Part shown: piece by piece, positions 482-1,765 of the stretch
Layout: every line of letters starts with the position of its first letter
Numbering within the stretch: position 1 is the stretch's first letter
Origin: Escherichia coli
GTDB taxonomy: Bacteria > Pseudomonadota > Gammaproteobacteria > Enterobacterales > Enterobacteriaceae
DNA: 14,750 nucleotides
Strand: one strand, 5' to 3'
NCBI RefSeq assembly: GCF_003334315.1
Contig: NZ_QOWR01000077.1
The notes under the pieces: generated by a model
What the model was told of the DNA's origin: nothing
What the model saw: the letters and a program-made list of their open reading frames with translations, nothing else
The model's database searches: none
Position numbers and translations under genes: made by a program

Positions 482-1765
482 TTAGCCTTTAGCTGTTGCA
501 TTTTGTTTATGAAACAGTTCACGGAACACCGGATAAATATCATCCTGGTCGCGGATGTGCTGCATCGCAAAGTTGTCGAAAGTAGATTGCAGATGCTCAT
601 ATTCTCGCCACAATGTCTGATGTGCACGACGGGTAATTTCGATATAGCTGTAATAACGAACAACAGGTAATAATTTTTTCGCCAGGATTTCATGGCAAAG
701 CGGAGAGTCATCGGCCCAGTTATCGCCGTCCGATGCTTGTGCAGCGTAAATATTCCACTGTGCCGGGTTATAACGCTCTTTCACTACCTCATCCATCAGT
801 TTCAGGGCGCTGGAAACAATGGTGCCGCCTGTTTCCTGCGAGTAGAAAAACTCATGTTCATCGACTTCTTTCGCCTGGGTATGATGGCGGATGTATACGA
901 CTTCCACGTTCTTATACGTTCTGCTGAGGAACAGATACAGCAGAATATAAAAACGCTTAGCCATATCTTTAGTGGATTGATCCATTGAACCGGAAACGTC
1001 CATCAGGCAAAACATCACTGCCTGGCTGGAGGGATCGGGCCGCTTCTCGTAGTTCTTGTAACGTAAATCGAAGGTGTCAATAAAAGGGACGCGTTCAATT
1101 TTGGCACGTAATTCTGCAATTTCTTTGCGCAGACGTTCCTCTTCCAGCAGTTGCGCAGGTTCACTGTTGCTGATGATGGCCAAATTCTCTTCCAGTGCAT
1201 GAAGTTCCCGCCGCTTGCCTGCCGTCATGGCTGTGCGTCGCGCCAGTGAGTTCTGCAATGAACGCACAACGCTGATATTGGCCGGAACGCCGTTAGCGGT
1301 ATAACCCGCCCGATGCGTTTTATATTCGGTCAGCTGGCGTTGTTGGTTTTGTTTCAGATTCGGTAAGGCCAAATCTTCAAAGAGCAGATCAAGATACTCA
1401 TCTTTCGAAATCTGAAAGACAAATTCATCCTGACCTTCACCATCCTGGCTGGCCTGGCCCTGACCACTGCCGGAACCTCCGCCGCCACCCTGGGGACGTT
1501 CAATTCGGTCGTTCTGGACGAAATGGTCATTGCCCGGATGCACGCGGTGGCGCAGACCGCCACGCCCCTGATGAAACATCGGTTCGCTAATATCTTCCGT
1601 GGGAATGGATACGGATTCGCCGCTGTCGACGTCAGTCACCGAACGCTTATTAATGGCCTCGGAGATCGACTGTTTAATTTGCGCTTTATAACGGCGTAAA
1701 AAACGCTGGCGATTCACCATGCTTTTGTTTTTGCCGTTCAGACGCCGGTCAATAAACCAGGTCAT
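482..1765 (-). CDS. yeaH: YeaH, DUF444 / vWA-like protein, downstream partner of the PrkA-family kinase YeaG
   Basis: 427-aa ORF, the length I recall for E. coli YeaH. It lies 112 bp downstream of yeaG on the same strand, with a G-rich SD (ACGGGGGG) ahead of the ATG. Confidence 0.93.

Follow-up and report, generated by a model that had tools for sequence, protein, structure and literature searches.

Within a 14,750-nt stretch of Escherichia coli DNA (the window, meaning here the whole stretch that was analysed), the yeaH gene encodes a short glycine-rich, low-complexity tract, and the question raised by this locus is whether the tract is a passive linker whose DNA readily changes length from strain to strain, as the initial annotation proposed, or a part of the protein that is maintained. 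The assignment of the gene to yeaH was confirmed by Pfam, where residues 4–421 of the product align to positions 2–418 of the 418-position DUF444 model (PF04285; E = 4.8e-191), by NCBIfam (NF003708, 843 bits against a cut-off of 466) and by 100% sequence identity to yeaH as annotated in numerous E. coli genomes. Such a full-length profile match above the curated threshold, together with the adjacency of prkA/yeaG, places the product in the YeaH/YhbH family (DUF444, PF04285; UPF0229), and there is no gene-level difference between the window gene and E. coli YeaH itself. The gene was found in 5425 of 5426 complete E. coli genomes. Both the gene and its tract are already known, the former being annotated in E. 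coli and the latter lying inside the Pfam DUF444 model, which runs through it unbroken.

The open reading frame of yeaG (644 codons) lies directly upstream of yeaH on the same strand, and the gene order prkA-DUF444(-spoVR) is common to six comparison loci (L005, L006, L008, L009, L010 and L013); the trio of prkA, DUF444 and spoVR genes was found in five of these (L005, L006, L009, L010 and L013) as well as in the Thermus phage Lalka8. The third gene, ycgB, is absent from the window and in E. coli forms its own, separate operon, and yeaG, yeaH and ycgB mutants are co-fit across six bacteria (bioRxiv 10.1101/072470). Additionally, the ΔyeaH phenotype after nitrogen starvation, a shorter lag following 24 h of starvation, is the same as that of ΔyeaG (PMC4664914), a growth advantage on L-arginine is a further phenotype (bioRxiv 10.1101/072470), and PrkA, earlier called a kinase, has lately been described as an ATP-dependent protease in Bacillus subtilis (PMC9512850). 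The yeaG-yeaH-ycgB module is genetically coherent, and it is a widespread stress/sporulation module. The coordinates of the features discussed below are collected in Table 1.

Table 1. Features of the yeaH locus, with positions counted from the first letter of the window
Feature	Position	Strand	Basis
yeaH CDS (427 aa; DUF444 / YeaH-YhbH family)	482–1765	minus	ORF and translation, Pfam, NCBIfam
yeaG (PrkA-family AAA+/kinase-like protein), operon partner	1878–3812	minus	NCBIfam NF011999, 1339 bits
Glycine-rich tract, YeaH residues 93–112	1430–1489	minus	Exact coordinate mapping; pLDDT < 50 at 95–105
Gly/Ser run, residues 93–101, GGGGGSGSG	1463–1489	minus	Sole part of the tract whose length drifts between genera
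Conserved second half, residues 102–114, motif [AG]-S-x-x-G-[ED]-G-E-D	1424–1462	minus	Alignment of 136 homologues
(GGCCA)2 pentanucleotide seed within the tract	1450–1459	minus	Alignment and TRF on the S. flexneri 1485-80 locus (L017)
7-nt direct repeats CAGGATG (coding strand)	1426–1432 and 1441–1447	minus	Repeat search, spacing 15
Predicted beta-strand FVFQI, residues 115–119, start of the well-folded body	1409–1423	minus	DSSP on the AF2 model
MIDAS motif D256-V-S258-G-S260 of the C-terminal vWA domain	986–1000	minus	Alignment of 136 homologues, Foldseek

Translation of the gene confirmed exactly the position first given to the tract (1430–1489, residues 93–112), and its description as Gly/Ser/Gln-rich and mildly acidic was borne out by its composition. 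Glycine makes up 10 of its 20 residues against 3.4% of the remaining YeaH, corresponding to a binomial probability of ~3e-10 per window and ~1e-7 over all YeaH windows, and no other 20-residue window of the protein has a lower entropy; two residues are acidic and none is basic, with D113 and E114 coming next. At the DNA level the tract has a GC content of 70%, compared with 49% for the yeaH gene, and since comparison of the whole window with Rfam at the gathering thresholds returned 0 matches, no RNA element appears to stand behind this GC-rich patch. The initial annotation had further held that repetitive GGC/GGT DNA makes the tract prone to indels, a claim that was not supported: the five leading glycine codons are mixed (GGT GGC GGC GGA GGT), a search with TRF (minimum score 30, the lowest threshold of the program; positions 1300–1600) found no tandem repeat, and the two indels examined at DNA level lie outside the glycine codons. 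Because TRF found nothing in the interval 1300–1600, an explanation by a microsatellite was dropped. The repeats in the tract are all short, namely the CAGGATG pair 15 nt apart, a second pair 30 nt apart and (GGCCA)2.

The behaviour of the tract in the E. coli population was followed with a query of 141 nt centred on it, compared with 5425 complete genomes, of which 4717 showed an identity of at least 99% over the 141 nt, 707 an identity of 95–99% and one an identity below 90%. The matches were ranked by coverage × identity, and the indel count consists of the sampled rows together with a rank-based bound. Sixty rows were sampled at regular intervals through the ranked list, and in 59 of them the match covers exactly 141 nt; for the whole gene, 29 matches in one full-length, unbroken piece were sampled, each of them exactly 1284 nt long. 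Because under this ranking any indel would stand at or below 97.9% identity, at most ~3% of the genomes could carry one. A single length variant of the tract, in E. coli EC100, was seen among the 5425 genomes, with the rank bound at ~3%, and the other strains that were read differ by three synonymous SNP sites and one G93D change. The tract is essentially monomorphic in the E. coli population. With near-invariance across strains being what was found, the proposed indel-proneness is nearly refuted within E. coli, and neither of two properties of a contingency tract, a perfect multi-copy tandem repeat and a strain-level length polymorphism, was seen, the latter as judged from the sample.

The EC100 allele is a 15-nt in-frame deletion in which one CAGGATG copy and the intervening bases are gone (alignment with L001), such that its YeaH is five residues shorter at the conserved end and reads ...GQASQDEFVFQ. 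As EC100 is a viable isolate with a shortened conserved end, the motif is dispensable for growth, which says little, dispensability being expected of a gene in a stress module. Two further singletons came from a large protein collection. The first, from the draft genome of Shigella flexneri 1485-80 (P0002, L017), shows an increase of GGCCA from 2 to ~8 copies (+30 nt, +10 aa, adding GQARP twice), for which TRF reported a period of 5, 9.4 copies and the consensus GGCCA; as the added 30 nt amount to ten whole codons, the reading frame is kept and the expansion shows no on/off switching. The second is an E. coli protein record with a short out-of-frame stretch, with the appearance of two sequencing errors. 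The two indels examined at DNA level, in EC100 and S. flexneri, arose outside the glycine codons, at short direct repeats within the stretch that codes for Gln, Ala and Ser.

Between genera, the length of the tract does move. In 120 cluster representatives of Enterobacterales, P91 and F115 are separated by a spacer of 22 residues in 88, of 23 in 23 and of 24 in six, with rare lengths of 20, 25 and 33 residues in one representative each; all of these differences lie within the G/S run, while the second half is fixed as SGQG-x-A-[SG]-x-DGEG-[QE]-D-[ED]. The alignment of orthologues that had been suggested as a check showed in this way shifts of one to two residues in the G/S run, and the length variation that was anticipated holds between genera and fails within E. 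coli, where one variant was seen.

Beyond the order, YeaH was scored against 1.84 billion cluster representatives, which yielded 3388 matches, and a family alignment was made of 136 near-full-length homologues with 37–59% identity to YeaH. Across these homologues the spacer from P91 to D113 is 18.4 ± 2.0 residues long, with ~90% of the values within 16–20, and Gly accounts for 40% of the tract, Ser for 12% and Asp and Glu together for 20%. The mean column entropy of the tract is 2.08 bits versus 2.17 bits for the whole protein; the tract is thus conserved to the same degree as the remainder of YeaH, with its length tightly kept. By contrast, the family region of true length variation is located at residues ~184–220, with a SD of 15 residues. 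The weak conservation of sequence and length that defines a passive linker was consequently not found (2.08 versus 2.17 bits; SD 2.0), and the combination of family-wide conservation and tight length is unlike a passive spacer. Conservation in the tract also depends on the position: glycines 94, 96, 109 and 111 and the glutamate at 112 are kept in 72–83% of the homologues (G109 in 113, G111 in 106 and E112 in 98 of 136), D113 is present in 130 and, like F115 and F117, is nearly invariant, and the tract ends in a family motif, G-[ED]-G-E-D-x-F-x-F, that is close to invariant. S106 is semi-conserved, with Ser in 78 of the 136 homologues, and the alignment columns for residues 99–102 are gapped in 35–97% of the family sequences. 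The tract is an ancient family hallmark of DUF444 (YeaH/YhbH), neither a drifting spacer nor a mutational hotspot.

The same architecture, a Gly-rich tract followed by [ED]-D-x-F-x-F and then by an E-F-L...LELPN helix (a criterion derived in the present analysis, without a published definition), was found in the 136 homologues, in Bacillus YhbH, in gp29 of the phage RsoM2USA and in Lalka8_12 of phage Lalka8. In Bacillaceae the tract of the sporulation protein YhbH reads ...R-DGSGG-QKQKGAGKG-QGAGD-xAGEDYYEAEVS..ELE..F.ELELPNL; it resembles the proteobacterial branch in its Gly-rich tract, its acidic-aromatic strand and its LELPN helix, and differs from it in that the Gly run is Lys-rich and not acidic and that the PGN motif is missing, the final G-E-D being shared. 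The homologue of the jumbo Ralstonia phage RsoM2USA (gp29) also retains the tract. The copy in the Thermus phage, Lalka8_12, is a shortened protein of 327 aa with 27–28% identity to YeaH (tblastn); it carries the tract-end sequence GDGDGEPHLVVEVS, it has lost the PGN..GD..RP segment and kept PPGGGGEGGGQGPGQGQGGDGDGEPHLVVEVS, and at this level of identity the tract is retained as PPGGGGEGGGQGPGQGQGGDGDGEPHLVVEVSLEELLDLIFEALRLP. Next to it are encoded a SpoVR-like protein (Pfam E = 8e-37) and a PrkA-like ATPase with 26% identity to YeaG over 623 residues (E = 8e-61), and this neighbourhood identifies Lalka8_12 as a genuine component of the three-gene module.

An AF2 model of YeaH was built on the 136-sequence alignment, with a mean pLDDT of 87.3 and a pTM of 0.76. 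Residues 60–114 are devoid of regular secondary structure in this model and residues 95–105 have pLDDT < 50, so the disorder prediction that had been proposed as a check came out positive for the tract, and two properties of a passive linker, predicted disorder and low complexity, were indeed found (AF2; lowest-entropy window). The strand at 115–119 is followed by a helix, a strand, a long helical hairpin (166–225) and an alpha/beta domain. Sequence searches of the PDB, with YeaH alone or with a profile of the 136 sequences, returned only noise (E >= 0.24). A Foldseek search of the PDB with the model gave 79 matches at E <= 1e-3, the top ones all being vWA domains with a probability of 1.0; the matches include CMG2, complement C2a, integrin I domains, Rea1-MIDAS (6qtb) and NorD of NorQD (9qhe). 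The vWA domain has pLDDT > 90 throughout, and in the 136 homologues D256, S258, S260 and T315 are invariant and D346/D348 nearly invariant. YeaH is predicted from the model to possess a vWA fold in which the MIDAS residues (DxSxS...T...D) are intact. The tract had been described as a linker between the N-terminal region and a vWA-like core; it is indeed N-terminal to the vWA fold, but not at the immediate boundary of that domain, since ~120 residues, comprising a strand, a helix, a strand and the long helical hairpin, stand between the tract and the MIDAS strand. In a fused YeaG-linker-YeaH model (pTM 0.49), built on 7 paired sequences plus 107 YeaH-only rows, the tract again has pLDDT < 50, and the YeaG half is poorly folded with long stretches below 50 because the sequences are too few.

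Taken together, the abundance of glycine, the disorder predicted for the tract and the small length changes that its G/S run tolerates point to a flexible element. Its narrow range of lengths, the conservation of its acidic end and its persistence in very distant and in shortened homologues show that selection maintains it. We infer that the tract most likely acts as a hinge or tether of tuned length in front of the folded body, operating within the YeaG-YeaH-YcgB module (probability roughly 0.55). In terms of anatomy, a Gly/Ser run whose exact length may drift by a residue or two is followed by the conserved acidic end, [AG]-S-x-x-G-[ED]-G-E-D-x-F-x-F, from which the chain passes straight into the first strand of the well-folded body. 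The glycines would give the backbone the freedom needed for the conserved basic N-terminal arm (residues 1–92) to change its position with respect to the vWA body, the point at which the loop re-enters the fold would be fixed by the acidic-aromatic end G-[ED]-G-E-D-x-F-x-F, and the hinge would act inside the YeaG(PrkA)-YeaH-YcgB(SpoVR) module. The position-specific conservation of G109, E/D110, G111, E112 and D113 goes beyond what a pure hinge would seem to need, and it hints at a possible contact or binding role.

The linker proposed at first, a weakly constrained Gly/Ser/Gln spacer in which GGC/GGT DNA slips and generates frequent length polymorphism between strains, fits the low complexity and predicted disorder of the segment, the shifts of one or two residues in the G/S run between enterobacterial genera and the existence of two rare length alleles (EC100, -15 nt, and S. 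flexneri 1485-80, +30 nt). As for slippage, the absence of any TRF repeat, the mixed glycine codons, the location of the examined indels at the CAGGATG repeats and at (GGCCA)2 and the fact that the remaining sampled rows were unchanged, with one length allele seen in 5425 complete E. coli genomes, leave the slipping spacer largely refuted within E. coli. As for passivity, a family length SD of 2 residues, a column entropy equal to the protein average and the survival of the tract in a Thermus phage protein at 27–28% identity are difficult to reconcile with weak constraint, so this explanation is now considered improbable. That the tract is a chance low-complexity patch or an artefact of sequencing or assembly is vanishingly improbable: short low-complexity runs do generally arise by chance, yet the binomial value for the protein is ~1e-7, the identical sequence is present in thousands of independent genomes and conservation of the tract extends to other phyla and to phages. 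The conservation data refute this explanation.

A different possibility is that the tract is a specific functional element rather than a hinge, with the acidic G-E-G-E-D serving as a ligand for the MIDAS of YeaH itself or of a partner, the Gly segment being engaged by YeaG/PrkA, or S106 being a phosphosite. In vWA MIDAS sites such as those of integrin I domains and Rea1, metal coordination is completed by an acidic ligand residue, and the MIDAS residues of YeaH are intact. The conservation of G109, [ED]110, G111, E112 and D113 beyond the needs of flexibility speaks in the same direction, as does the retention of the tract in Lalka8_12, where the neighbouring N-terminal segment is lost; moreover, genetic data link YeaH to an AAA+ protein whose B. 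subtilis version is a reported ATP-dependent protease (PMC9512850). On the other hand, the AF2 monomer leaves the loop undocked and at low confidence, S106 is a Ser in just 78 of 136 homologues, and the Gly run of Bacillus YhbH is basic (K-rich), with only the final G-E-D in common. A specific element of this kind is possible but doubtful. It is unlikely, although conceivable, that the loop would be an acidic built-in ligand occupying a MIDAS metal site until the module is activated, or a segment that the YeaG AAA+ ring would grip or slip on. In the variant with YeaG/PrkA engagement, the tract might serve as a 'slippery' stop signal, like the Gly-rich tracts of other AAA+ substrates. The length-tuned hinge is retained here as the preferred interpretation.

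Literature on YeaH/YeaG, DUF444, YhbH/PrkA/SpoVR, YcgB and von Willebrand domains was searched, and no account of the tract and no solved structure of YeaH were found in it; an apparent mention of DUF444 (10.1101/192971) turned out to concern DUF4445. The family-wide conservation of the tract is a small new remark on a known feature and no new kind of thing. The tract is no source of strain-to-strain variation but an ordinary feature of an annotated gene, and the gain is a modest one: the loop becomes a hallmark of the family, constrained in length and conserved at its acidic end, even in phage-borne copies. A conserved flexible loop combined with a MIDAS-vWA domain constitutes a cheap and well-defined target for mutagenesis, for which the EC100 allele is a natural test case. 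If the tract is a working part of the stress module and more than a hinge, its retention from E. coli to Bacillus and to Thermus phages would place it at the centre of the mechanism of a widespread module.

Compared with known pairs of an AAA+ protein and a MIDAS-vWA protein (Mg-chelatase BchI/BchD, Rea1/Midasin and the MoxR-type pairs NorQ/NorD, CbbQ/CbbO and RavA/ViaA), YeaH likewise has a MIDAS-vWA domain and a genetic coupling to an AAA+ partner, which is a PrkA-type protein and not of the MoxR or chelatase type. In BchD and Rea1 an acidic linker of low complexity directly precedes the MIDAS domain, whereas the YeaH loop is Gly-rich, ~20 residues long, constant in length and ~120 residues before the vWA strand; the likeness is drawn as a functional analogy, without a claim of homology. 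Gly-rich tracts are also able to make AAA+ unfoldases slip, as in the glycine-rich region of NF-kB p105 and the Gly-Ala repeat of EBNA1. YeaH resembles these by analogy, since its Gly-rich segment is found just upstream of a stable fold in an AAA+-coupled protein, but its tract is much shorter, and YeaH would be no more than a putative substrate of YeaG/PrkA. With contingency tracts, finally, the locus shares a true pentanucleotide expansion inside the tract, from (GGCCA)2 to ~8 copies in one S. flexneri allele, whereas the window itself holds two GGCCA copies, below any slippage-prone length.

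The real length variation in the DUF444 family lies at the tip of a long helical hairpin (YeaH residues ~184–220), where the standard deviation of length among 136 near-full-length homologues is ~15 residues compared to 2 for the Gly-rich tract (YeaH residues 93–112). At the tract itself, a G93D polymorphism affecting the first glycine was found in E. coli MS20645 and in the protein cluster P0001 (190 member sequences). Additionally, in a deposited NCBI E. coli YeaH sequence (P0005), a stretch of 12 residues replaces one of 13, and the protein is one residue shorter overall. The altered stretch looks like the product of two compensating frameshifts, which are probably sequencing errors in this GC-rich patch.

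Coordinates of features in the window and the comparison on which each is based
Feature	Position (nt)	Strand	Basis
Length-variable part of the DUF444 family, YeaH residues ~184–220	~1106–1216	-	136 homologues
G93D codon, YeaH residue 93	1487–1489	-	
Equivalent of the P0005 variant stretch	~1445–1489		
301-aa ORF flanked by gapA and the aldo-keto reductase gene	5989–6894	-	NCBIfam search
IS1 element interrupting ydjH	~14298–14750 (within ORF region 13774–14750)	+	identity to IS1A/IS1B

The yeaH gene (window 482–1765) is disrupted in a few E. coli strains (records NZ_CP019778.1 and NZ_CP128926.1, genome matches H1 and H30): in NCTC86 it is split by ISEc40, an IS630-like element, and in TUM9812 the match covers only 56% of the gene, and the feature is annotated there as a DUF444 family protein and not as yeaH. 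A yeaH match was absent altogether in one of the 5426 E. coli complete genomes searched.

The prkA/yeaH/spoVR trio is also carried by phages (PQ109075, loci L014 and L016; MG752970, locus L015; LR756502; LR745206; LR756504). The jumbo phage RsoM2USA has full-length copies, as do uncultured phages of 595–642 kb; Thermus phages of ~71–77 kb harbor a compact version, located directly after the portal and minor-head genes, in which a vWA protein of 327 aa is accompanied by a SpoVR-like protein and a PrkA-like ATPase. Phage-like neighbors (a PDDEXK nuclease, primase, intein and GyrB) were found beside the trio in several metagenomic loci as well, those recorded for the phage-linked trio being L009, L010 and L013.

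Elsewhere in the window, the NCBIfam search at E ≤ 1e-3 matched all of the neighbors of the 301-aa ORF but not the ORF itself; in the K-12 gene order, yeaD occupies this place. At the end of the window, the sugar kinase gene ydjH is broken by an IS1 element showing 99.6–100% identity to IS1A/IS1B copies; the ORF at 13774–14319 is just 181 aa long. With coverage of at least 80% of window 13700–14750 as the criterion for genomes possibly having the same junction, just 35 of the 5426 complete E. coli genomes could carry it, and the IS1/ydjH junction is therefore a strain or lineage marker.
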